Of a stretch of 32,000 nt of DNA, positions 3,001 to 28,908 are shown one piece after another (position 1 is the first letter of the stretch; the number at the start of each line of letters is the position of its first letter). The notes beneath the pieces are model-generated. The model was not told where the DNA came from, did no database searches, and saw only the letters and a program-made list of their open reading frames with translations. Source of the stretch: Nitratidesulfovibrio vulgaris str. Hildenborough (GTDB lineage Bacteria; Desulfobacterota; Desulfovibrionia; Desulfovibrionales; Desulfovibrionaceae); the NCBI RefSeq assembly GCF_000195755.1, contig NC_002937.3:510001-542000 (forward strand), in the 5' to 3' direction. A program made the translations under genes and the position numbers.

Positions 3001-4033
3001 AAAGTTCCGGTATGACTGTGGCGGCGAGTGTGTCGAAGGCGGTTTCATCCCGGAAGAAGGTCGTCACCCCGATGAGCAGGTCGCGGAACAGGGTCTGCAC
3101 CGCTTGCGGGTCGTCACGAAGGTGCCGGGCATAACCTTCGATGTCGGCATGTTGTTCAAGCCGGATGCGGCGCATGATGCGCCGTGCGATGGTGGCCGGT
3201 TTGTAGTCGCGAAAGTCGAGCCCGCCATGGCGTTGCAGCAGCGTGAAGATGGTCTGCAGCGCGTCGGGGGCAGGGCCTCCGGAGGCGGGGTCGGCAGGCA
3301 GGCCGGGATGTTCGAACGGAAGTGGCGAGCCCGATATGAAGGCGGCGAGTATGTCCGGCATTTCGTCTGGAGTGGCAAGCACGGCAGCCCGGCAGGCCGC
3401 GGCTGCTGCTTTGGGCATGCCATCGAAAGCCGCGCTTTCGGGGAGTTGGACGAGAACCAGACCTCCGGCGGCGGAGATGGCCTCCAGCCCCGACGCCCCG
3501 TCGGTGCCGGTGCCGGAAAGGACGACCCCTGCGGCGTTCTCTCCATACCATGCGGCGAGGGAGGCGAAGAAGGTGTTGATGGGCATGGAGGGGCGGTTGT
3601 CATATGAAGACTTGTCGCGCAGGATGAAACCGTCCAGCGTTATCTCCATCTCCTTGCCGGGCGGCAACAGGTAGATGTGGTCGGGTGCCGGGCACATGCC
3701 ATCCTGCACAACGACGATGGTCATGACAGTCTGGCGGGCCAGCAGTTCATCCATGAAGCTTGGGAAATCGGGTGACAGATGCTGGATGACCACGAACGCG
3801 GCCCCGGTGGTGGTGGGCATATGCCTGAAGAGGCCCTCAAGGGCTTCCAATCCCCCCGCAGAGGCGCCTATGCCGACGACAAGGGGAAGATGCACGGCAT
3901 CATGTGTGGTGGGGTGGTGCCCGGCACGCCCCTTCGCGGCGCGATGGCTGTCGACCTGCCGAGGCACGGCATTCTCTTCCGGCAACGTGCCGGAAGGCGC
4001 TGTTGGGGGAATGTCGAGACGGGGTGCAGCCAT
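1..4033 (-). CDS. Multidomain sensor: CheB-like methylesterase + CheR-like methyltransferase + coiled coil + PAS-like repeats + HisKA/HATPase histidine kinase. The 3' end is truncated by the window edge.
   Basis: The minus-strand frame in phase with 4033 is the only frame with no ORF listed in the track across 1-4033, consistent with one ORF open to the window edge. My translation starts at ATG (complement of 4031-4033), with GGAGG 7 nt upstream: MAAPRLDIPPTAPSG. Motifs read: CheB-type PLVVGIGASAGGLEA (~3845-3885); CheR-type GEIRLWVAGCASGEEAYSLGMLLLE (~2900-2980); coiled coil VTNEELQATNEELLSANEELQATNEELHSIN (~1805-1900); H-box KSEFLANVSHELR (~545-585); G-box PFTQLDGSYTRRHSGLGLG (1-58). Confidence 0.85.
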   Translation of the reverse strand, partial: MAAPRLDIPPTAPSGTLPEENAVPRQVDSHRAAKGRAGHHPTTHDAVHLPLVVGIGASAGGLEALEGLFRHMPTTTGAAFVVIQHLSPDFPSFMDELLARQTVMTIVVVQDGMCPAPDHIYLLPPGKEMEITLDGFILRDKSSYDNRPSMPINTFFASLAAWYGENAAGVVLSGTGTDGASGLEAISAAGGLVLVQLPESAAFDGMPKAAAAACRAAVLATPDEMPDILAAFISGSPLPFEHPGLPADPASGGPAPDALQTIFTLLQRHGGLDFRDYKPATIARRIMRRIRLEQHADIEGYARHLRDDPQAVQTLFRDLLIGVTTFFRDETAFDTLAATVIPELFRKQGDRGEIRLWVAGCASGEEAYSLGMLLLEAAPQFDFTGRISIFATDVHRHSLDRASAGVYTKDSLQALSPRRLQRFFIPEGDETYRVAPELRSLVLFTQHNILADPPFTRVDLVSCRNLLIYFGVDAQERAIARLHMALRPGGVLFMGASETTGRLHPIFEPLDPRLRIFTKRPDTLGMTATHLVHPAVIDAHRLATSSPQPSERQLLRDYDALLQRFAPDGMLVDDRFAVLHFFGNGASYLTQHTGRTDRPITDMVEGDLRLALSSALQRASTTGETARFKSIRVPGNGGDRLVDVEVMPIGNKPSDGKHYHVALQSSHPVLIRPLVEPAATGHGTGLLASRVAELEAELAETRSSLRDSIEQVHVTNEELQATNEELLSANEELQATNEELHSINEELYTVNAEFERKNDQLRILGEDYAQLFDTIPIAIASLDESLRVRRFNAGMSAIFHLQPHDVGRPLQQIASCLAEPDNLFKSLALGLSEGGTHDSEARLTDGRWCQQRIHAVRDETGATEHMLLTFMDITHVKHAEAMRQEARSLDEVSRNVPGVVFKLCAPHDGNIRVEYVGGGTVELCGLSQEEIKADPHALVALFGPDVVPHILAGISATDGEGTPVDVEIPLHCTGGTKWVHVQATSTPARGGGTEWYGVAVDATERRYDATRMHNAADRYLRILDHAPMLIWRSDTTGACDWFNTTWLDFTGRTMEQEYGYGWAGGVHPDDYDRCVSIYQKAFALQQAFEMNYRLKRHDGQFRWLVDCGKPLPDLDGTFSGFIGYCYDITDAVNALESMCEASKRAEEANRTKSEFLANVSHELRTPLNGALGMLQLLELSSLSPEQRQYVTTAIRSGQNLVRLLSDILDLSRIEAGKLVIEAIPCDIRELVDEVFSTFSLDATGKGITLETTIAPGTPTYVRTDPLRLRQTLFNLVGNAVKFTEKGGVRVEFSTASMRGDAIVLFCTVRDTGPGIPEDRIESIFQPFTQLDGSYTRRHSGLGLG

Positions 4034-4246: not shown

Positions 4247-4335
4247 TGGTGCCGAAGGGGAGACTCGAACTCCCACTGGGGAACCCCAACTAGACCCTGA
4301 ACCTAGCGTGTCTACCAATTCCACCACTTCGGCGC
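4247..4335 (-). tRNA. tRNA-Leu (anticodon CAG), class II with long variable arm, encoded CCA
   Basis: The reverse complement reads GCGCCGAAGTGGTGGAATTGGTAGACACGCTAGGTTCAGGGTCTAGTTGGGGTTCCCCAGTGGGAGTTCGAGTCTCCCCTTCGGCACCA (89 nt). The acceptor stem GCGCCGA/TCGGC(A)C pairs. The anticodon stem is CTAGG/TCTAG with loop TTCAGGG (anticodon CAG). It has a GTTCGAGTC T-loop and a long extra arm typical of tRNA-Leu. Confidence 0.9.
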
Positions 4336-17279: not shown

Positions 17280-17309
17280 TTGACAGCGCGAGGCGCGGGT
17301 TCGTATGAT
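17280..17309 (+). promoter_or_regulatory. Sigma70-type promoter of the aromatic amino acid superoperon
   Basis: TTGACA (17280-17285), an 18-nt spacer, then TATGAT (17304-17309). An A/T-rich UP-like tract (CACCTTTTTCAATTTTCTAC) lies immediately upstream. The element sits in an AT-rich island of an otherwise GC-rich window. Confidence 0.55.
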
Positions 17310-17354
17310 TCACATCAGCTACAAGAAAAAGGATATTGAAAGGTCAAGGGCAAC

Positions 17355-17456
17355 ATGCTTACCATCAACGCCACGTACTTCCCCACTTCCGGTGCCAGCT
17401 ATTACTGGTACTTTTTTAGCTATGGAGAAGCCCGTGGCCTGGTGGGTCGCGCCTAG
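17355..17456 (+). CDS. Leader peptide (33 aa) rich in aromatic codons; candidate attenuation sensor for Tyr/Phe/Trp
   Basis: Too short for the ORF track. ATG 17355 to TAG 17454-17456 encodes MLTINATYFPTSGASYYWYFFSYGEARGLVGRA. Nine of 33 residues are aromatic. Codons 16-23 (17400-17423: TAT TAC TGG TAC TTT TTT AGC TAT) read YYWYFFSY. AAGGG lies 5 nt upstream of the ATG. The ORF lies between the promoter and an intrinsic terminator. Confidence 0.6.
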   Translation: MLTINATYFPTSGASYYWYFFSYGEARGLVGRA

Positions 17457-17491
17457 ACCTCATTAAAGGATCAGGTGCACCGAGACAACAG

Positions 17492-17526
17492 GGGCCGCGG
17501 GCGAAAGCCAGCGGCCCTTTTCTTGT
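17492..17526 (+). terminator. Intrinsic terminator (attenuator) in the superoperon leader
   Basis: Stem GGGCCGC (17492-17498) / GCGGCCC (17511-17517), plus an inner stem GGC/GCC closed by a GAAA tetraloop (17503-17506), followed by TTTTCTTGT. Alternative pairing: GCCCGTGGCC (17430-17439, leader codons 26-28) can pair with GGCCGCGGGC (17493-17502) over 10 bp with one G-U. That would sequester the terminator 5' arm. Confidence 0.7.
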
Positions 17527-17670
17527 ATCCGGCGTCGGAGCGCGCACTGCCGCCGGAAAGGAACGAGGGGACGCCCGAACGTTCCATCAGCAGGGGATGA
17601 CACATGCGGCGGAACCGCCAATGAACGGGCGCAGCGCGCCGCAACAATGCTTCATGACGAGGATGGCATC

Positions 17671-18471
17671 ATGCACATAGGCAAGAAGATCAGAATGGAG
17701 CGGCTCTTCAACCGCACCACAGGGCGTTCGGTCATCGTTCCTCTCGATCATGGCGTGAGCGTCGGCCCCATCGACGGACTGGTGGACATGCGTGACACGG
17801 TCAATCAGGTAGCCGAAGGCGGCGCGGATGCTGTGCTCATGCACAAGGGCCTCGTGCGTTGCGGGCACCGCGAGGGCGGCCGCGACGTGGGCCTCATCGT
17901 ACATCTCTCGGCCAGCACGTCGCTGTCGCCGTTGCCCAATGCCAAGACCCTCACCGCGACGGTCGAAGACGCCATCAAGCACGGTGCTGACGGCGTGTCG
18001 GTGCACGTCAACCTCGGTGACGAGACCGAGCGCGACATGCTCGCCGACCTCGGCCGTGTGGCCACCATCGCCAACGACTGGGGTGTGCCCCTTCTGGCCA
18101 TGATGTACGCGCGCGGCCCGCGCATCCGCGACCAGTACGACCCGCAGGTGGTGGCGCATTGCGCCCGCGTGGGTGTTGAACTGGGGGCCGATGTGGTGAA
18201 GGTGCCCTACACCGGTGATATGGATACCTTCGCCCATGTGGTGCAGTCGTGCTGCGTCCCCGTGGTCATCGCAGGCGGGCCCAAGCTCGACTCCACCCGC
18301 GACTTCCTCCAGATGGTGCATGACGCCGTCCGTGCCGGGGGTTCCGGTCTTTCGGTGGGGCGCAACATCTTCCAGCATGCCCGCCCCTCGCAACTGGTCA
18401 AGGCCGTGCGCGGCCTCGTGCATGAGGACTGGGACGTGGAACAGGCCATCGCCATCGTGGGCGAGGACTAG
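17671..18471 (+). CDS. aroA': 2-amino-3,7-dideoxy-D-threo-hept-6-ulosonate (ADH) synthase, class I aldolase of the archaeal-type DHQ pathway
   Basis: [64 protein letters not shown] matches my recollection of the MJ0400-type AroA' N-terminus (RLERIFNR...VIVPMDHGVS.GP..GL). ATG at 17671 with GAGGA 8 nt upstream; the track start 17647 is 8 codons earlier. Confidence 0.85.
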
Positions 18472-18479
18472 GCGTCGCC

Positions 18480-19451
18480 ATGCGTACCATCCTTTTCAAG
18501 AGCGTCCCCTTCAGCAAGGAGGCTGTGACGCTGGCCCTCGAATCGGGCGTGGACGGCATCATCGTGCCTGAGAAACATGTGGCCCCGGTGCAGGCACTGG
18601 CCCGCTGCAAGGTGCTGTGCGACGATGCCGTCTGTACCCTCGAACTCACCGCCAAGGCGGATGAGGAGGAGGCGGCAAGCCGCCTCGCCGCCGGTGAGGA
18701 CGTGGTGCTGGCACGGGGCTGGGAAATCATCCCCGTCGAGAACCTGCTGGCACGGTCGGACAGGGTGACGGTGGAGGTGGCCTCGCTGGACGAGGCACGC
18801 CTCGCTGCTGGCATCCTCGAACGTGGCGTGTCCACCGTGGTGGTGCTGCCGCAGGCCGTGACGGAACTCAAGGCCATCGTGCAGGAACTCAAACTCTCGC
18901 AAGGGCGCATCGACCTCGCCCCCGCCGTGGTCACCGCCGTGCGGCCCGTGGGCCTCGGACACCGGGTGTGCGTCGACACCATGTCGCTGCTGCGCACGGG
19001 GCAGGGCATGCTCGTGGGCAATTCCAGCGCCTTCACCTTTCTGGTCAACGCCGAGACGGAGCACAACGAATACGTTGCGGCGCGGCCCTTCCGCATCAAC
19101 GCCGGGGCCGTCCATGCCTACGCCGTGATGCCGGGCGACCGTACCACCTACCTTGAAGAACTCCGTTCCGGCAGCGAGGTGCTCATCGTGGGGGCCGATG
19201 GCGCGACGACCATCGCCACCGTGGGCAGGCTCAAGGTCGAGGTGCGCCCCATGCTGCTGGTCGAGGCGCGCGTGGGCGACACCGTGGGGGCGGTCTTCCT
19301 GCAGAATGCCGAGACCATCCGCCTTGTGCGCGCTGACGGTACGCCCGTGAGCGTGGTGGCCCTGCGCGAGGGCGACGAGGTGCTGTGCCGTACCGACGTG
19401 GCGGGACGCCACTTCGGGATGCGCATCACCGAAGACATCAGGGAGGCCTAG
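18480..19451 (+). CDS. aroB': 3-dehydroquinate synthase II (archaeal type, MJ1249 family)
   Basis: 323-aa ORF immediately after aroA'. Its length and sequence character (MRTILFKSVPFSKEAVTLALESGVDGIIV... RPFRINAGAVHAY ...) fit the DHQ synthase II family. Assignment is strengthened by adjacency to the ADH synthase gene. Confidence 0.8.
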   Translation: MRTILFKSVPFSKEAVTLALESGVDGIIVPEKHVAPVQALARCKVLCDDAVCTLELTAKADEEEAASRLAAGEDVVLARGWEIIPVENLLARSDRVTVEVASLDEARLAAGILERGVSTVVVLPQAVTELKAIVQELKLSQGRIDLAPAVVTAVRPVGLGHRVCVDTMSLLRTGQGMLVGNSSAFTFLVNAETEHNEYVAARPFRINAGAVHAYAVMPGDRTTYLEELRSGSEVLIVGADGATTIATVGRLKVEVRPMLLVEARVGDTVGAVFLQNAETIRLVRADGTPVSVVALREGDEVLCRTDVAGRHFGMRITEDIREA

Positions 19452-19453
19452 CC

Positions 19454-20629
19454 GTGAGCGCACCCGAACCCGTGAACGGCACACCGCCTGATGTGGCGCA
19501 ACGGCTACAGGCCATCCGCGTGACCATCGACGGTCTCGACCGCGACCTGCTTGCGCTGCTCAATCGACGCGCCGCACTGAGTCTTGAGGTCGGCCGCATC
19601 AAGGCCACCGACCCCGGCATCGTCTTCCGCCCCTTCCGTGAGCGCGAGGTGTTCGACAACCTCGAAGCCGCCAATGAAGGGCCGTTGCCCGACGAACACC
19701 TGCGAGCCATCTGGCGCGAGATCATCTCCTCGTCGCGCAGCCTGCAACGCCCGCAGCGTGTGGCCTACCTCGGCCCTGAAGGCACCTTCTCGTATTTCGC
19801 AGGCATGGAGTTCCTCGGCAGGGCCATGGACTACAGGCCGCAGCCCGGTCTGCCCGACGTGTTCCGCGCCGTGCACGACCGCCAGTGCGAACTGGGCATC
19901 GTGCCGCTGGAGAACTCGTTGCAGGGTACGGTGGGGCAGAGTCTCGACCTCTTCCTGCAACACGAGGTGTTCATACAGGCCGAACTCTTCTGCCGCATCA
20001 GCCACTGCCTGCTTGGCACGGCGGCGGCACTGGCGGACATCGACACCGTGTACTCGCACCCGCAGCCGCTGGCCCAGTGCGGCGGGTGGCTGCGTGCGCA
20101 CCTGCCCAACGCCCGCATCATCCCCACCGAATCCACCGCCGCGGCAGCCCGCAGGGCGGCGGGCGAGGCGGGGGCCGCCGCCATCGGTCACCGCAGCCTC
20201 GCTGACCTTCTCGGGCTCAACGTGCTGGAACGGGGTATCGAAGACCAGCCAGACAACTGGACGCGCTTCGTGGTCATCGCCCCCGCCCCTGCCGACCAGC
20301 AGGGACGCGAGAAGACCTCCATGCTCTTCTCCCTGCCAGACAAGGCAGGTGCGCTGGCTGGAGTGCTCGAACTGCTGGCCCGCGAGGGCATCAACATGAA
20401 GAAGCTCGAATCGCGTCCCTTGCGGGGCGAGAAGTGGCAGTACGTCTTCTTCGTGGACGTGGAATGCGACCTCGGCACTGAACGGTACGCCCGTCTCGTC
20501 GAAGAACTGCGCACACTGTGCCACACGTTGCGCATTCTCGGCAGCTATCCTGTGGGGCCGCATTTCGACATGGCGGCGCATGAAGCGTTGCCCGGTCTGC
20601 CCGATCAGATAGGCCAGGGAGGCCTGTGA
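19454..20629 (+). CDS. pheA: Bifunctional chorismate mutase / prephenate dehydratase (P-protein)
   Basis: GTG at 19454 (GGGAGG 7 nt upstream), 2 nt after the aroB' stop. CM domain: LQAIRVTIDGLDRDLLALLNRRAALSLEVGRIK. PDT domain: VAYLGPEGTFSY. ACT domain: TSMLFSLPDKAGALAGVLELLAREGINMKKLESRP. Confidence 0.9.
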   Translation: MSAPEPVNGTPPDVAQRLQAIRVTIDGLDRDLLALLNRRAALSLEVGRIKATDPGIVFRPFREREVFDNLEAANEGPLPDEHLRAIWREIISSSRSLQRPQRVAYLGPEGTFSYFAGMEFLGRAMDYRPQPGLPDVFRAVHDRQCELGIVPLENSLQGTVGQSLDLFLQHEVFIQAELFCRISHCLLGTAAALADIDTVYSHPQPLAQCGGWLRAHLPNARIIPTESTAAAARRAAGEAGAAAIGHRSLADLLGLNVLERGIEDQPDNWTRFVVIAPAPADQQGREKTSMLFSLPDKAGALAGVLELLAREGINMKKLESRPLRGEKWQYVFFVDVECDLGTERYARLVEELRTLCHTLRILGSYPVGPHFDMAAHEALPGLPDQIGQGGL

Positions 20630-21948
20630 TGGAACCCGTAGTCGTCACCGCACCGCCGTCCAAGTCGCTCTCGCACCGCGCTCTCATCGGGGCGGCGCTG
20701 GCAGCAGGCGAGTCGACGGTGGAACATGTGCTCGAAAGCCGCGACCTGACCTGCACCGCCGACATCCTCCGGGCGGCGGGGGCGCACATCGAACGGCGCG
20801 CCCCCGGAAGCTACCTCGTACGCGGCGTGGCGGGCACCCCGGCAGGGGGCTTCGAGGCCCCCGTATCGTGCGATGTGCACGAGTCGGGCACCACCTGCCG
20901 TCTGCTCACGGCCGTGCTGGCGGCGGGCATGGGGCGTTTCCGCATCCATGGTGCTCCGCGCATGCACGAACGGCCCATCGGGGAACTCACCGACGCGCTG
21001 GCATCACTTGGCGTGCAGATAGCCTTCGAGGCGCGCGCGGGCTTTCCGCCGCTCGTCATCGACGCTGCCGGTATGCGCGGTGGCGAGGTCTCCATCGGCA
21101 TGGACGAGTCGAGCCAGTATCTTTCCGGCCTGTTGCTTGCCGCGCCGCTGACGCAGGGCATGACCGTGAACGTGGCTGGCAAGAGCGTCGTGTCATGGCC
21201 CTATGTGGGGCTCACCCTCCAGACCCTCGAGGATTTCGGCATCGACTTCACCGTGGAGACGCGTGACGCCGTCGACGCCCCGTGGGGCGCGGTGGACTGG
21301 CGTAGCCTGCACGAGGCCGTGCCGGGGCTGGTGCGCTTCAGGGTACGTCCCGGCATGTACCGCGCAGGCAGCTACAGGGTGGAGGGCGACTGGTCGGGCG
21401 CAAGCTACTTTCTCGCCGCAGGTGCCGTGGGCCCTCGCCCTGTGCGCGTGGAGGGGCTGCGCGTCGACTCCCTGCAGGGCGACCGGGCGTTGCTCGACAT
21501 CCTCACCGCCATGGGTGCCGACATCCGCCCCGGAGAGGGGCATGTGGTGGTGCATCCCGCCCCGTTGCATGGCGTCGAGGTGGACATGGGCCACTGCCCC
21601 GACCTTGTGCCCACGGTGGCGGCGGTGGCGGCATTCGCCACGGGGCGTACTGTCGTCCGTAACGTGGCCCACCTGCGTATCAAGGAAAGCGACCGCATCG
21701 CCGCCCCGGTGGGAGAATTGCGCAGGGCGGGCGTGAACGCCGAGGAACGCGCCGACGGGCTGGTGGTGCAGGGCGGTGCCCTCGCCACTGAACCGGGTAC
21801 GCTCTTCTCCGCCCACGGCGACCATCGCATGGCCATGAGTCTTGCCCTGCTTGGGCTTGGCGGGGTGGATGTGCGCCTTGACGACCCTTCGTGTGTGAGC
21901 AAGTCGTTCCCGCATTTCTGGGAACTATGGGAGAAGGTGAGGGCATGA
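20629..21948 (+). CDS. aroA: 3-phosphoshikimate 1-carboxyvinyltransferase (EPSP synthase)
   Basis: APPSKSLSHRALIGAAL N-terminal motif, with the HGAPRMHERPIGEL and KESDRIAA motifs. ATG 20629 overlaps the pheA TGA (GTGATGG). AGGGAGG lies 6 nt upstream. Confidence 0.9.
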   Translation: MEPVVVTAPPSKSLSHRALIGAALAAGESTVEHVLESRDLTCTADILRAAGAHIERRAPGSYLVRGVAGTPAGGFEAPVSCDVHESGTTCRLLTAVLAAGMGRFRIHGAPRMHERPIGELTDALASLGVQIAFEARAGFPPLVIDAAGMRGGEVSIGMDESSQYLSGLLLAAPLTQGMTVNVAGKSVVSWPYVGLTLQTLEDFGIDFTVETRDAVDAPWGAVDWRSLHEAVPGLVRFRVRPGMYRAGSYRVEGDWSGASYFLAAGAVGPRPVRVEGLRVDSLQGDRALLDILTAMGADIRPGEGHVVVHPAPLHGVEVDMGHCPDLVPTVAAVAAFATGRTVVRNVAHLRIKESDRIAAPVGELRRAGVNAEERADGLVVQGGALATEPGTLFSAHGDHRMAMSLALLGLGGVDVRLDDPSCVSKSFPHFWELWEKVRA

Positions 21949-22721
21949 GCGCCGTGAAGATAGCCCTCGTGGGTGACAAGGGACGCATGGGGCGTCTGCT
22001 GACGTCGCGCTTCTCCGCTGCCGGGTGCGAGGTCGCCGGTGTGGACAGGCCCCTGACGCCCGACACCGTGCGCCCGGCGGTGCAGGGGGCGGATGTGGTC
22101 ATCCTGTGTGTGCCCGTGGAGGTGCTGGCAGAGGTACTCTCGATTGTCGCACCGCTGCTTTCTCCCAAACAAGTGCTTGCGGACATCACGTCAGTTAAGG
22201 TACGACCAATGGAAGTGATGCAGGCGTTTCACGCCGGGCCGGTGGTGGGAACCCATCCCCTTTTCGGCCCGGACCCGCAGGACGACCATCTGCCTGTGGC
22301 TGTGACGCCCGGTTCATCCGCCCGTGACGCGGATGTAACACTCGTGGAGCAGTGTTTTCGCATGATCGGCTGTGACACCTTCCGTACCACGGCGCAAGAG
22401 CACGACCGTGCCGCCGCCATGATACAGGGGCTGAACTTCATCTCCAGCGTCGCCTATCTCGCTACGCTGGCCCACAATGAAGAGCTTCTGCCCTTCGTCA
22501 CGCCCTCCTTCCGCCGCCGTCTCGACGCGGCCCGCAAGATGCTCACCGAAGACGCAGCCCTGTTCGAGGGCATGTTCGAAGCCAATCCTGCCAGTCAGGA
22601 CGCCGTCCGTTCGTTCCGTTCCTTCCTGAACATCGCTTCCGCCGGCGATGTCGACGTGCTCGTCGACCGCGCACGCTGGTGGTGGCGCACGCATGATGAC
22701 AGGGGAGGAGCACGCCAGTAA
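21945..22721 (+). CDS. tyrA: Prephenate dehydrogenase
   Basis: ATG 21945 overlaps the aroA stop (ATGA). Rossmann N-terminus KIALVGDKGRMGRLL, plus ADITSVK and GTHPLFGP motifs. The C-terminal tail reads ...VDRARWWWRTHDDRGGARQ. Confidence 0.85.
   Translation: MSAVKIALVGDKGRMGRLLTSRFSAAGCEVAGVDRPLTPDTVRPAVQGADVVILCVPVEVLAEVLSIVAPLLSPKQVLADITSVKVRPMEVMQAFHAGPVVGTHPLFGPDPQDDHLPVAVTPGSSARDADVTLVEQCFRMIGCDTFRTTAQEHDRAAAMIQGLNFISSVAYLATLAHNEELLPFVTPSFRRRLDAARKMLTEDAALFEGMFEANPASQDAVRSFRSFLNIASAGDVDVLVDRARWWWRTHDDRGGARQ
22677..22711 (+). promoter_or_regulatory. Candidate Trp-sensing element inside the tyrA 3' end: three tandem Trp codons plus an antiterminator 5' segment
   Basis: TGG TGG TGG at 22677-22685, in the tyrA frame and 11 codons before TAA (22719-22721). 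GGGGAGG (22702-22708) pairs with CCTCCCC (22763-69). With C22762 bulged, AGC (22709-22711) pairs with GCT (22759-22761). These partners are the 5' arm and loop of the downstream terminator. Confidence 0.5.
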
Positions 22722-22752
22722 CAGGCGTACGGCACCGTCATATCGTTGTTGC

Positions 22753-22791
22753 AGCCGCGCTCCCTCCCCGGGGGCGCGGCTTTTTCTTTTT
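22753..22791 (+). terminator. Strong intrinsic terminator between tyrA and trpE (internal operon attenuator)
   Basis: GCCGCGCTCCC (22754-22764) / GGGGGCGCGGC (22770-22780): 11-bp stem with one G-U and a 5-nt loop TCCCC, followed by TTTTTCTTTTT (22781-22791). It lies 32 nt after the tyrA stop and 62 nt before the trpE ATG. Confidence 0.75.
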
Positions 22792-22852
22792 CGCCACAAA
22801 AGGGGCAAACGCCCGGGACGGCATCCCGGAAAGGCGACACGAGGAGAACGAC

Positions 22853-24451
22853 ATGGAGATGGACGACGCGAAAAGGCCCGCAGGCGCGAAACGGCGCACG
22901 GGCGGTGAAGAGGACGCAGGTCGTGTCGCCGGTCACGCCACGACGCAGGACAATGCTCATGCGATGCCCAGCACGCAAGCCGGCACGCAAGCCGGGGGCG
23001 CAGGTGCCCATGCGGATGCGAATCCGGCTGGATGCCCGGATGGGCGCATCGTGCTGCGGCAGTCGTGCAGCCTGCTTGAGGGCGATGTGGATACGCCCAT
23101 CAGTCTGTTTCTGGGCATGGTGGGGTCGGGGCAGGGCATCCTGCTCGAGAGTGCCGAGGTGGACGGACGCTGGGGGCGTTACAGCATCATCGGCTTCAAC
23201 TTCCTTCTGCGTCTCGGCTGTGCGGCAGGGCGGCTTGAGGTGGCAGTACGCGACCCGCGTCTTGCGGCACTGAAGGAGCTGGAGGGGATGCCCTTCATCG
23301 AGGGCGTGCGTGCCGTCATGCGGCGGCTGACCATCGAACCGGACCCCGACTTCGCCAACCAGCCGCCCATCACGCGAGCCCTGTACGGGTACATGGGCTA
23401 CGGCGTGGCAGGTCTGCTCGAACCCAAACTCGCCCCGGTGCTACGGGCGGAAGCGGCAGAGGCGTGTCTTGCCCTGCCGGGCACGGTGGTGGTCTTCGAC
23501 CATCTCTACAACCGCCTGACCATGCTCTCGCTCACCGACCGCAACGGTCTGCGCATCGACCGTTCGGTGCTCGACCGTGCGCCGCAGACGCCGGAGGTGG
23601 GGCCCACCCGCGCGGTGCCCGACGAGTCAGCCTACAAGCGCGCCGTGGAGCGCACCCGCGAGATGATCCGGCAGGGCGAGGCCATACAGGTGGTGCTCTC
23701 CACGCGGTTCCAGGCGTCCTTCAATGGCGACCCCTTCACGCTGTACCGCAGACTGCGACGCATCAACCCCTCGCCCTACATGTTCTTCATGCGCCTGCCG
23801 GGTGTCTCGCTGCTGGGTTCGTCGCCGGAGGTGATGGTGCGTTGCAGCAAGGGGCGGTTGCAGGTCAGCCCCATCGCCGGAACCCGTCCGCGCGGGGTCG
23901 ATGACGTCGAAGACGCGCGCCTCGCGGCGGAATTGCTCGATGACCCCAAGGAACGCGCCGAACATGTCATGCTGGTCGACCTCGGGCGCAACGACCTCGG
24001 GCGCATCGCCGCCCCCGGTACGGTGCAGGTCGAGCGGTTCATGGAGGTGGAGAAGTTCTCGCACGTCATGCACCTCACCTCGCGGGTGACCGCAGACCTC
24101 GCAGAGGGGCACGACGCACTGGACGTGCTGACGGCCACGTTTCCGGCAGGCACGGTGAGTGGTGCCCCCAAGGTGCGCGCCATGGAAATCATCGCCGAGG
24201 CCGAAGGACAGCCGCGCGGCCCCTATGCCGGGTGCATAGGCTGGTTCGGACTCGACCGTGACAGCGTGAGTCTCGACACCGGCATCACCATCCGCAGCAT
24301 GTGGGTGCGCGAGGGGCAGGTGCACTGGCAGGCGGGGGCGGGCATCGTGTTCGACTCGAAACCCGCCGCGGAATGGAAGGAGTGCTGCAACAAGGCGGCG
24401 GCCATGCGTGCCGCACTGGATGGAGGCTGTCATGTTCCTGCTCATCGATAA
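22853..24451 (+). CDS. trpE: Anthranilate synthase component I
   Basis: GAGGAG lies 6 nt upstream of ATG 22853. Conserved core: LLESAEVDGRWGRYSIIG, SPYMFFMRL, GSSPEVMVR, IAGTRPRG, DPKERAEHVMLVDLGRNDLGR, FPAGTVSGAPKVRAMEII, RGPYAGCIGW. The first ~55 aa are a low-complexity extension, so an alternative start at M38 (22964) is possible. Confidence 0.9.
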   Translation: MEMDDAKRPAGAKRRTGGEEDAGRVAGHATTQDNAHAMPSTQAGTQAGGAGAHADANPAGCPDGRIVLRQSCSLLEGDVDTPISLFLGMVGSGQGILLESAEVDGRWGRYSIIGFNFLLRLGCAAGRLEVAVRDPRLAALKELEGMPFIEGVRAVMRRLTIEPDPDFANQPPITRALYGYMGYGVAGLLEPKLAPVLRAEAAEACLALPGTVVVFDHLYNRLTMLSLTDRNGLRIDRSVLDRAPQTPEVGPTRAVPDESAYKRAVERTREMIRQGEAIQVVLSTRFQASFNGDPFTLYRRLRRINPSPYMFFMRLPGVSLLGSSPEVMVRCSKGRLQVSPIAGTRPRGVDDVEDARLAAELLDDPKERAEHVMLVDLGRNDLGRIAAPGTVQVERFMEVEKFSHVMHLTSRVTADLAEGHDALDVLTATFPAGTVSGAPKVRAMEIIAEAEGQPRGPYAGCIGWFGLDRDSVSLDTGITIRSMWVREGQVHWQAGAGIVFDSKPAAEWKECCNKAAAMRAALDGGCHVPAHR

Positions 24452-27724: not shown

Positions 27725-28908
27725 AGAAAGGTTACTTCGGCGATTTCGGCGGCAGGTTCGTGCCTGAACTGCTGATGCCGCCCCTGATGGAGATTGAGGC
27801 GGCCATGCGCGACATCATGCCCACGCAGGCATTCCGCCATGAGCTTGACGACCTGCTGCACAACTTCGCAGGGCGTGAGACCCCCCTCACCCGGTGCGAC
27901 ACCCTGTCGCGTGAACTCGGCTGCACCCTGTGGCTGAAACGTGAAGACCTGCTGCACACCGGGGCGCACAAGGTGAACAACACCCTCGGGCAGGCGTTGC
28001 TGGCCCGGCGCATGGGCAAGACGCGTCTCGTGGCGGAGACCGGCGCGGGGCAGCATGGCGTGGCCACCGCAGCGGCGGCGGCACGGCTGGGGCTGTCGTG
28101 CATCGTCTTCATGGGGGCGGTGGATGTGGAACGCCAGTCCGCCAACGTCATGCGCATGAAGCTGCTGGGGGCGGAGGTCGTGCCCGTGGAAAGCGGCACG
28201 CGCACCCTCAAGGACGCCATCAACGAGACCCTGCGCTACTGGATAGCGGAACAGGGCAGTACGCACTACTGCTTCGGCACGGCGGCGGGGCCGCACCCCT
28301 TCCCCACGCTGGTGCGCGACTTTCAGGCTGTCATCGGTCACGAGACCCGGCGGCAGATGCTGGAACGCACGGGTGCGCTGCCCGACATGGTGGTGGCGTG
28401 CGTGGGCGGCGGTTCCAATGCCATCGGCATGTTCCACGCCTTCGTGGACGATGCGGACGTGCGCATCGTGGGTGTCGAGGCCGCAGGCACGGGCGAACCG
28501 GGGTGCTACAACTCCGCACCCATCAACCTTGGGTCGCCGGGGGTGCTGCATGGCAACCGTACCATGCTGCTACAGGACGGCGACGGACAGATACTGCCGT
28601 CGCACTCCGTCTCGGCGGGACTCGACTACCCCGGTGTGGGGCCGGAACATGCCCATCTCGGGGCCACGGGGCGCGTGGTCTACGGCATGGTCACCGACAC
28701 GCAGGCGCTTGCCGCATTCAAGGCACTCACCCGCGCCGAGGGCATCATCCCCGCGCTGGAATCGTCGCACGCGGTGGCATGGGTGCTTGAGAACCCGCAT
28801 CTGCTGCCGCAGGGCGGCAATGTGGTGGTGAACCTTTCGGGACGTGGCGACAAGGATATGGACATCGTGCGGGAACACCTGTTCCCCAGCTTGGGAGGCA
28901 AGGCATGA
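27721..28908 (+). CDS. trpB: Tryptophan synthase beta chain
   Basis: [14 protein letters not shown]., [16 protein letters not shown] (PLP lysine), [10 protein letters not shown] and GGGSNAIG motifs. The ATG overlaps the trpF stop (ATGA). Confidence 0.95.

Follow-up and report, generated by a model that had tools for sequence, protein, structure and literature searches.

A likely ribosome-mediated tryptophan attenuator in the 3' end of tyrA, ahead of trpE, in Nitratidesulfovibrio vulgaris and related sulfate-reducing bacteria

The tyrA-trpE junction and its alternative folds

The aromatic supraoperon of Nitratidesulfovibrio vulgaris str. Hildenborough raises the question of whether its trp genes are subject to a control point of their own, located between tyrA and trpE. 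A ribosome-mediated, Trp-sensing transcription attenuator probably occupies this position, with the 3' end of tyrA serving as the sensing ORF, a reading for which there are no transcript or reporter data. NCBIfam gene calls in the window (the whole 32,000-nucleotide stretch of DNA that was analysed, whose numbering is used throughout) comprise ADH synthase, DHQ synthase II, pheA, aroA, tyrA, trpE, trpG, trpD, and trpC. The last three of these follow trpE and precede more co-oriented ORFs in the ORF list. The features of the junction are as follows.

21945..22721, + strand: tyrA, prephenate dehydrogenase, 258 aa, with its ATG at 21945 (translation and NCBIfam prephenate dehydrogenase matches); its last 14 codons are the proposed translated leader of the attenuator
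22677..22685, + strand: three consecutive Trp codons, TGG TGG TGG, in the tyrA frame (W245-W247 of TyrA), the proposed regulatory codons
22702..22716, + strand: antiterminator 5' strand, with core GGGGAGGAGC at 22702-22711, lying within the tyrA coding tail and encoding RGGAR
22719..22721, + strand: tyrA stop codon TAA (read from the sequence)
22722..22752, + strand: spacer inside the antiterminator helix, forming local stem-loops and differing in length and sequence among lineages (folds and alignment)
22753..22781, + strand: intrinsic terminator hairpin of 12 pairs, 10 of them G-C, with a loop of 5 (terminator scan and fold)
22754-22769, + strand: antiterminator 3' strand, which is the terminator 5' arm plus loop (nascent-RNA fold)
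22781..22791, + strand: terminator U-tract TTTTTCTTTTT (sequence and terminator scan)
22841..22846, + strand: trpE Shine-Dalgarno sequence GAGGAG (read directly from the sequence)
22853..24451, + strand: trpE, anthranilate synthase component I, the proposed first regulated gene (NCBIfam and ORF list)

The C-terminal end of the tyrA product reads ...RARWWWRTHDDRGGARQ, followed by the stop, and 11 codons separate TGG TGG TGG from the TAA. The sequence elements and their two alternative folds are shown by the analysis. The terminator hairpin has an energy of about -26 kcal/mol (-26.5 by fold) and begins 31 nt after the tyrA stop when measured to its base at 22753, or 32 nt when measured to 22754. 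When the nascent RNA is folded from 22686 to 22769, with the 3' arm of the hairpin not yet made, the minimum-energy structure (-31 kcal/mol) pairs 22702-22708 with 22763-22769, 22709-22711 with 22759-22761, and 22713-14 with 22756-57. The minimum-energy state of the full-length RNA is the terminator, so antitermination must be kinetic.

A preliminary description, made from the sequence alone, had reported the Trp codons at 22677-22685 in the tyrA frame, 11 codons before the TAA; a GC hairpin with a U-tract 32 nt past the stop; and pairing of 22702-22711 with 22759-22769 as a mutually exclusive antiterminator. All three observations held, the third in the nascent-RNA fold and the second with a small revision, from 11 bp at 22754-22780 to 12 pairs at 22753-22781.

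The junction lacks several components that might be expected of a leader. A 1:2 hairpin would require the Trp-codon region to pair with the antiterminator strand, and across 18 loci this pairing is no better than in shuffled sequences (mean z = 0.0). No + strand ORF with Trp codons other than tyrA is found within 22640-22855. The distance from the U-tract to the trpE ATG is 61 nt in the window and about 20 nt in one group of related loci (group 2), which leaves no room for a promoter, so trpE must be reached there by read-through. In two further junctions, L090 and L091, about 200 nt lie between terminator and trpE, enough room for a promoter.

Conservation and co-variation among related junctions

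A search of genome contigs with a single protein query yielded eight loci, mostly from Nitratidesulfovibrio; breadth came from a metagenome search with an alignment. The resulting set holds 25 distinct junctions of the form tyrA(WWW/LWW)-spacer-trpE, in which TyrA is 42-99% identical to the TyrA of the window, forming 18 clusters at 80%. The arrangement is confirmed in the named species Pseudodesulfovibrio tunisiensis, in Desulfocurvus sp., and in Nitratidesulfovibrio spp., and other homologs bear Oleidesulfovibrio-, Halodesulfovibrio-, and Humidesulfovibrio-type names.

Conservation of both folds across this set is shown. A terminator with a U-tract is present in 24 of the 25 junctions, scoring from -17 to -30 kcal/mol and, with the hairpin of the remaining junction (L061, where the U-tract is weak) included, starting 21-45 nt past the tyrA stop. 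Among 23 sequences, both partners have changed in six of the ten pairs of the terminator helix, with pairing kept in 96% of cells. Every junction (25/25) also carries a strand complementary to the terminator 5' arm or loop, with energies from -14.5 to -28.7 kcal/mol. The two strands of this antiterminator helix change together between lineages, as the following pairs (5' strand / 3' strand) illustrate.

Window: GGGGAGG / CCUCCCC
L030: AGAAGUGC / GCACUUCU
L056 group: GGGACGCGGC / GCCGCGUCCC
L058: GGGUGCGGC / GCCGCACCC
Desulfocurvus L091: GGGGAGACGUG / CGCGUCUCCCC

The register of the helix varies between lineage groups (arm plus loop in some, arm only in others). Since these differences ruled out a single column-wise count of covariation, duplex energies of cognate and non-cognate strand pairs were compared by permutation. 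The cognate mean is -22.5 kcal/mol, compared with -17.6 kcal/mol for non-cognate pairs, and the observed cognate mean was not reached in any of 20,000 permutations. Against shuffled sequences the mean duplex z-score is -3.1. Significance at single loci is modest in places (z = -1.85 for the D. vulgaris-type junction and -0.99 for L037). A Shine-Dalgarno-like role for the G-rich strand was considered and rejected, since the corresponding strand of other lineages reads GGGACGCGGC or GGGUGCGGC.

These data bear on the simplest rival explanation, that an ordinary terminator happens to follow an unrelated G-rich coding tail. In favor of coincidence, G-rich and C-rich runs pair easily, and, at the DNA level, the 9-mer TGGTGGTGG is not rare in a window as GC-rich as this one, occurring 3 times against 0.49 expected (the other copies lie at 3808 and at 28388, the latter out of frame with its own ORF). 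Against it, 18 clusters, with TyrA identity as low as 42%, share the arrangement and show co-variation, and the permutation and shuffle controls speak against chance. Coincidence is thus all but excluded. The evidence that exceeds chance is that the arrangement as a whole is conserved in related loci; it is not the rarity of TGGTGGTGG.

Trp codons, ribosome position, and rival explanations

The geometry of the junctions is likewise shown, and it ties the antiterminator strand to the Trp codons. The first paired nucleotide of the strand lies a median of 17 nt past the last Trp codon, and its core at about 15-23 nt, in the 25 junctions. The stop codon, in contrast, moves over a 24-nt range, from 13 to 37 nt past the Trp codons, while the distance to the strand stays fixed; depending on the junction, the stop sits after, inside, or before the strand. 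The strand falls outside the CDS in the eight group-2 loci and in L058, L064, L080, and L090. L011 and L078 share the 13-nt GGAGGGGTGCGTC in different reading frames, encoding GGVR in one and EGCVR in the other. A strand that is coding in some lineages, lies past the stop in others, and is read in two frames in this pair indicates a constraint at the RNA level.

Ribosome footprints extend roughly 12-15 nt downstream of the A-site codon. In a coverage model built on this value, 93% of the strand's paired nucleotides (14 of 16 in the D. vulgaris-type junction) fall under a ribosome at the stop, compared with 2% under one whose A site holds the third Trp codon. The footprint sizes themselves are inferred, as are ribosome stalling, transcription-translation coupling, and the response to tryptophan.

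In the proposed mechanism, RNA polymerase would transcribe, in order, the three Trp codons, the strand at 22702-22716, the tyrA stop, the spacer, and the terminator at 22753-22791. With abundant charged tRNA-Trp, the lead ribosome would reach the tyrA stop and cover the complementary strand, the terminator hairpin would form, and most transcripts would end before trpE. When charged tRNA-Trp is scarce, the ribosome would stall at W245-W247 with its footprint short of that strand, which would then be free to pair with the terminator 5' arm once made; the terminator would be blocked, and transcription would read through into trpEGDC and beyond. Because there is neither a dedicated leader ORF nor a 1:2 hairpin, an untranslated transcript would default to read-through.

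The Trp run itself calls for caution. WWW is present in 234 of 240 TyrA homologs and in 17 of the 18 attenuator-bearing clusters, the exception having LWW. It is also kept in about a dozen lineages without trpE or an attenuator 3' of tyrA, such as D. legallii, so the run has, or also has, a role at the protein level or elsewhere. Matches from a sequence search of solved structures stop short of the WWW region, so an AlphaFold model was used (mean pLDDT 93.4). In this model, WWW forms the end of the last helix (residues 236-247), and the scores of residues 252-258 fall below 50. The tail past WWW is thus predicted to be disordered and free to carry RNA information. In five lineages, trpE abuts or overlaps tyrA; in these the terminator is absent, and the first Trp is missing from all of them (AWW, TWW, or LWW). 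The association between the first Trp and the attenuator has a Fisher p of about 0.011 (ingroup only, uncorrected for phylogeny).

The analysis also bears on further claims of the preliminary description. The argument that a WWW run is very unlikely by chance is weakened by the TGGTGGTGG counts, and the remark that WWW was not known as a conserved feature of TyrA is corrected by its presence in nearly all homologs. As WWW is conserved in TyrA of this family, even without an attenuator, its improbability is not the evidence. The proposal that a stalled ribosome frees the strand and a ribosome at the stop masks it is supported by the comparative data and the modelled coverage, with stalling still inferred. 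Across the related junctions, tandem Trp codons are kept, both helices are kept with matching changes in their strands, and the spacing to the stop varies.

A second rival takes the hairpin to be a partial terminator that works constitutively and sets a lower, constant ratio of trp to aro/phe/tyr expression, with the strand only tuning its efficiency and WWW being structural and unrelated to regulation. Partial terminators within operons are common, and WWW both persists in lineages without the attenuator and ends the last TyrA helix. This rival leaves unexplained the fixed distance from strand to Trp codons while the stop moves 24 nt, the placement of the stop always where a terminating ribosome masks the strand, and the loss of the first Trp where trpE abuts tyrA. 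It is therefore considered unlikely.

A third rival assigns the choice of fold to a trans-acting factor, whether a TRAP- or PyrR-type RNA-binding protein, uncharged tRNA (as in a T-box), or a small RNA. Alternative helices by themselves do not reveal the sensor, and TRAP acts on an attenuator before trpE in B. subtilis (PMC3064811), where the attenuator is internal to the aro supraoperon. However, a search of the whole window against Rfam at gathering score returned a tRNA as its sole match, with no Trp_leader (RF00513), T-box, riboswitch, or other leader family, and a search of 22560-22900 at E up to 10 returned only sub-threshold chance matches. TRAP would need about 11 (G/U)AG repeats spaced 2-3 nt apart; 22700-22780 contains two GAG triplets only. 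The spacer, where such a factor could bind, is variable in both sequence and length, and the conserved spacing to the Trp codons is left unexplained. A trans-acting sensor is thus very improbable, and ribosome position on the tyrA Trp codons remains the preferred reading.

Relation to known attenuators and implications

The element was compared with classical attenuators (E. coli trpL, Rfam RF00513 Trp_leader, and S. meliloti trpL; PMC6614838). Like these, it has tandem Trp codons in a translated stretch 5' of trpE, with similar spacing to the antiterminator strand, and a terminator and a mutually exclusive antiterminator chosen by the position of the ribosome, stalled or at the stop (here inferred). 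Unlike them, its Trp codons encode residues 245-247 within a 258-aa enzyme rather than being part of a dedicated short leader ORF with its own start, it has no 1:2 (anti-antiterminator or pause) hairpin, it lies inside an operon rather than behind a promoter, and it matches no Rfam model.

The expectation that a full-length enzyme gene would be an unusual leader held, with two partial precedents. In E. coli rph-pyrE (PMC2784333), the leader is likewise a full-length enzyme gene, rph, and how strongly the biosynthetic gene after it is expressed depends on transcription-translation coupling and on where the rph stop lies with respect to an intercistronic terminator. That system responds to pyrimidine supply by way of polymerase pausing. 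In contrast to tyrA-trpE, the rph-pyrE ribosome suppresses the terminator by following closely, without regulatory codons or an antiterminator helix. The tyrA stop precedes the hairpin by 21-45 nt in all junctions, so the ribosome cannot reach the hairpin as it does in rph-pyrE. In Chlamydia trachomatis YtgCR (PMC7755916), a WWW motif within a functional full-length protein senses Trp via ribosome stalling and ultimately controls trp genes. There, stalling leads to termination downstream in the same gene and less repressor, with an indirect effect on trpBA via a promoter, whereas stalling in tyrA is proposed to prevent termination directly in cis. The TRAP attenuator of B. subtilis (PMC3064811) similarly sits right before trpE in a larger aromatic cluster, where Trp gates transcripts from upstream genes, but its sensor is a protein binding (G/U)AG repeats, and ribosome position on Trp codons is irrelevant.

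For D. vulgaris, Song et al. describe one attenuator only, ahead of aroA' (Song et al., 2005; PMC1173090), and Rodionov et al. make no mention of tryptophan (Rodionov et al., 2004; PMC545781). No prior description of the tyrA-embedded element was found in the full-text literature searched; subscription journals were outside this search, so one is not excluded. The element is probably a variant of ribosome-mediated attenuation not described in the literature searched, and there is no experimental test of it.

A bolder reading, which is doubtful at present, gives WWW two jobs: stalling would release the trp genes and also hold back completion of TyrA. Less TyrA, the enzyme of the competing tyrosine branch, under Trp shortage would shift chorismate towards tryptophan. 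If true, this hold-back would account for the retention of WWW in about a dozen lineages, of gut Desulfovibrio types, where the downstream trp genes and the attenuator have been lost, and the enzyme C-terminus would be a family-wide dual-coding element under protein, RNA-structure, and codon-sensing constraints.

The attenuator reading, which remains favored, would itself carry several implications. Textbook amino-acid attenuators use a dedicated mini-ORF behind a promoter; here the same logic apparently resides in the end of an enzyme gene, mid-operon, suggesting that neither a leader gene nor a 1:2 hairpin is required for attenuation to evolve. RNA-structure and codon-choice constraints would shape a protein's C-terminal tail, with the same 13-nt strand occurring in two frames, or the strand lying outside the CDS, depending on lineage. 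Elements of this kind would escape genome-wide attenuator searches that are limited to short leader ORFs in 5' regions. In Desulfovibrio physiology and engineering, altered trp operon expression is predicted when the tyrA 3' end is edited, a C-terminal tag is added, or the stop codon is changed. The 12-gene aromatic cluster would gain a second, tryptophan-specific control point, in a design that the comparative data show to be conserved across a whole family of sulfate-reducing bacteria.

The tyrA-trpE junction and its alternative folds

The tyrA-trpE junction sits inside a co-oriented cluster of aromatic amino-acid genes. Calls are from NCBIfam and the ORF list unless stated otherwise.

17647-18471, 2-amino-3,7-dideoxy-D-threo-hept-6-ulosonate synthase
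18480-19451, 3-dehydroquinate synthase II
19385-20629, chorismate mutase/prephenate dehydratase
20626-21948, aroA
21945-22721, tyrA
22853-24451, trpE
3' of trpE, trpG, trpD and trpC (called by NCBIfam)
3' of trpC, up to about 29678, further co-oriented ORFs (ORF list)

The same gene order is given for Desulfovibrio vulgaris (Song et al., 2005; PMC1173090), and a later transcriptome paper handles the 12 cluster genes as one operon (PMC3431258). Minus-strand ORFs over the junction, which overlap tyrA and trpE, were rejected as mechanical ORFs arising from high GC content.

TyrA ends in ...VDRARWWWRTHDDRGGARQ and a stop; three consecutive Trp codons (WWW, residues 245-247 of 258) occupy 22677-22685, and the stop is a TAA (22719-22721). 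In a terminator scan, the junction terminator is one strong site within 14 kb; its stem (22753-22781) has 12 pairs, 10 of them G-C, closes on a 5-nt loop and runs on into TTTTTCTTTTT. From this U-tract to the trpE ATG, which is preceded by GAGGAG, is 61 nt, and no sigma-70-like site was found in that interval. The preliminary description had placed a Trp attenuator here, and its coordinates all held against sequence, translation and terminator scan.

When nascent RNA is folded from 22686 to 22769, before the terminator 3' arm is made, the minimum-energy fold reaches -31 kcal/mol; for 22698-22769, none of 200 shuffles folds equally well. The resulting antiterminator pairs 22702-22708 (GGGGAGG) with 22763-22769 (CCUCCCC), 22709-22711 with 22759-22761, and 22713-14 with 22756-57. 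Because its downstream strand is the terminator 5' arm and loop, the two structures are mutually exclusive. Folding from 22736 onward, which mimics a ribosome on the stop codon, gives the terminator at -26.5 kcal/mol. The terminator is also the minimum-energy state of the full-length RNA, so antitermination would be a kinetic, co-transcriptional choice, like that of classical attenuators.

No Rfam family matches the junction, either with the whole window at gathering score or with the junction region at a relaxed cut-off. Within the 32-kb window, only a tRNA gene (4250-4333, minus strand; 50.7 bits) reaches the gathering score. The junction contains no other Trp-codon ORF, and a TRAP-type repeat array is ruled out by the presence of only two GAG triplets.

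Separately, an aromatic leader lies upstream of the whole cluster, at 17280-17527.

17280-17309, sigma-70-like promoter (TTGACA, 18-nt spacer, TATGAT)
17355-17456, 33-codon ORF rich in Tyr, Phe and Trp, encoding MLTINATYFPTSGASYYWYFFSYGEARGLVGRA
about 17491-17524, terminator, GGGGCCGCGGGCGAAAGCCAGCGGCCCC plus UUUUCUUG

This leader folds much more strongly than shuffled sequence (z = -5.2). Table 7 of Song et al. (2005; PMC1173090) includes a D. vulgaris attenuator in front of aroA', so this leader is apparently known already, as a prediction.

Conservation and co-variation across related loci

Related tyrA loci (L-numbers; n = 92) were gathered from genomes (8), metagenomes (80) and protein look-up (4), and local tblastn was used to place the tyrA gene with its stop codon, and trpE where it follows. 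They include 25 distinct tyrA-spacer-trpE junctions, with TyrA 42-99% identical to that of the window and 18 clusters at 80% identity. A terminator with a U-tract is present in 24 of the 25 (-17 to -30 kcal/mol), starting 21-45 nt past the stop; L061 has the hairpin with a weak U-tract (TTGCTGC). Both sides change in 6 of 10 pairs of the terminator helix, and 96% of cells are paired versus 43-49% with the partner slid.

A strand complementary to the terminator 5' arm or loop occurs in every junction (25/25), with pairing energies from -14.5 to -28.7 kcal/mol; the pairing begins a median of 17 nt past the final Trp codon (about 15-23 nt for the core). This antiterminator 5' strand and the terminator arm/loop co-vary between loci. 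A constitutive partial terminator is an unlikely rival reading.

Antiterminator 5' strand and terminator arm/loop in individual loci
Locus; 5' strand; arm/loop
window; GGGGAGG; CCUCCCC
L040; GGGGAGGAA; UUCCUCCCC
L030; AGAAGUGC; GCACUUCU
eight group-2 loci (Humidesulfovibrio-like); GGGACGCGGC; GCCGCGUCCC
L058; GGGUGCGGC; GCCGCACCC
L078; GGGGUGCG; CGCACCCC
Desulfocurvus sp. (L091); GGGGAGACGUG; CGCGUCUCCCC

Across 18 loci, the strand-arm duplex has a mean z-score of -3.1 against dinucleotide shuffles, and energies average -22.5 kcal/mol for cognate pairs versus -17.6 kcal/mol for non-cognate ones. The observed cognate mean was not matched in any of 20,000 permutations, and a chance arrangement of these segments is all but excluded.

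The chromosome of Nitratidesulfovibrio sp. HK-II carries the junction twice (L002 and L007), near 3.66 Mb and near 0.83 Mb, and the two copies run in opposite directions on the record. Such distant copies suggest duplication of the aromatic cluster in this genome.

RNA-level constraint and ribosome geometry

In the window and Nitratidesulfovibrio, the stop codon follows the complementary strand. It falls inside the strand in L032, L037 and L040, and directly precedes it in group 2 (WWWRDKA and stop, taG-GGACGCGGC), L058, L064, L080 and L090. A 13-mer common to L011 and L078, GGAGGGGTGCGTC, is read in differing frames as GGVR and EGCVR. Comparative evidence strongly supports constraint on this strand at the RNA level. 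Because its frame and its position relative to the stop codon vary, the "GG" conserved in the tail of many TyrA proteins is read as a by-product of that need.

Ribosome footprint size is established. A ribosome was modelled as spanning -15 to +14 nt relative to the A-site codon's first base. At the stop it would cover 93% of the strand's paired bases, against 2% when the A site holds the third Trp codon and 0% when it holds the first. As no junction has its stop closer than 21 nt to the hairpin, a terminating ribosome would be unable to block the terminator itself. The geometry inferred from this model is compatible with ribosome sensing, and the rival that a trans-acting factor sets the choice between terminator and antiterminator is very unlikely. 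Pairing of the Trp-codon region with the antiterminator strand is not above shuffled sequence (mean z = 0.0, 18 loci), so a 1:2 element, the anti-antiterminator/pause hairpin of classical attenuators, is absent.

The best-supported reading, and a likely one, is a two-structure ribosome-mediated Trp attenuator with the tyrA 3' end as leader. The analysis shows its elements and alternative folds, together with their conservation, co-variation and geometry. When Trp is plentiful, the ribosome would get to the tyrA stop and mask the strand, and the terminator would form; a ribosome stalled on WWW would leave the strand free for the antiterminator, with read-through into trpE. Stalling, coupling and a response to tryptophan are inferences. 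The observation first made from sequence alone held, and its interpretation as an attenuator is supported by strong comparative evidence, without experimental data.

WWW in TyrA and the relation to known attenuators

Homolog searches add information beyond the preliminary description: WWW occupies this position in 114 of the 120 best TyrA homologs (55-98% identity) and in 120/120 best matches when deeper relatives were used to seed a second search. Among closer relatives (the ingroup), the motif never varies at its second Trp and has Trp or Phe at the third position, and its first position is variable (A, T, L, S, R, P, G, V); some distant outgroup loci (<40% identity) carry G in place of the second Trp or lack the motif. 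An AlphaFold model (mean pLDDT 93.4) predicts that the last helix, 236-247, ends in WWW, with pLDDT below 50 for residues 252-258. Homologs carry from 1 to more than 30 residues past WWW.

WWW is present in 17 of 18 attenuator clusters; the exception, L030 (LWW), keeps two Trp codons, the same number as E. coli trpL. In five lineages trpE adjoins or overlaps tyrA without a terminator, and the first Trp is missing in all (L045, LWW; L047, AWW; L060, TWW; L062/69, AWW; L065, AWW). About 12 of 22 ingroup lineages without the attenuator have WWW (Fisher p about 0.011 for the association, uncorrected for phylogeny). About a dozen lineages, human-gut Desulfovibrio types including D. legallii, retain WWW with tyrA as the last cluster gene and unrelated genes or a convergent gene downstream. 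Retention of WWW there without a downstream trpE counts against a purely regulatory origin of the motif.

Several loci show further variation. In gut-type L018-L023 and L072, tyrA ends in WWWKK and a stop, trpE is absent downstream, and a terminator begins 13 nt past the Trp codons (region about 13-50 nt after WWW) with a 5' arm (GGGGAAGGGAGCG) similar to the attenuator's antiterminator strand; it is possibly a relic, a former antiterminator helix turned operon-end terminator. In one clade (L035, L038, L049, L077), also without trpE downstream of tyrA, WWW is followed by a roughly 30-residue Lys/Glu-rich extension (e.g. WWWKEGEEKKKIHEEARKVALQSARMGLKKGQK), and in L038 an unidentified ORF seems to begin at the tyrA stop (TAATG). 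L058, L061 and L064 share a conserved mini-ORF, ATGAA(T/C)GG(T/C)ACGTGA (MNGT and stop), with its own GGAG, directly 3' of the terminator and with a further 150-250 nt to trpE; close TyrA homologs include named Pseudodesulfovibrio species. In L090 and L091 the distance from U-tract to trpE is about 200 nt, whereas the window has 61 nt and group 2 about 20 nt; an extra promoter or other regulatory element could fit in the longer gap.

The tyrA-trpE element shares its working logic with trpL attenuation but lacks two features generally regarded as defining that type, a dedicated leader ORF and the 1:2 hairpin. Partial precedents exist. In E. coli rph-pyrE, a full-length enzyme ORF is the leader of an intercistronic attenuator, although without regulatory codons or an antiterminator, and the ribosome acts directly on the terminator (PMC2784333). 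In Chlamydia YtgCR, WWW within a functional protein is the Trp sensor, but stalling there leads to termination, and trpBA is affected indirectly, via a repressor (PMC7755916). In the B. subtilis aro supraoperon, trpE is preceded by an internal attenuator that depends on TRAP (PMC3064811, for the TRAP mechanism). The sole attenuator given for the D. vulgaris cluster by Song et al. (2005; PMC1173090) is ahead of the first gene, and no description of a tyrA-embedded attenuator was found in the literature searched, which left out most subscription journals. With no experiment in hand and a prior description not excluded, the tyrA-embedded attenuator would represent a new variation on known ribosome-mediated attenuation.
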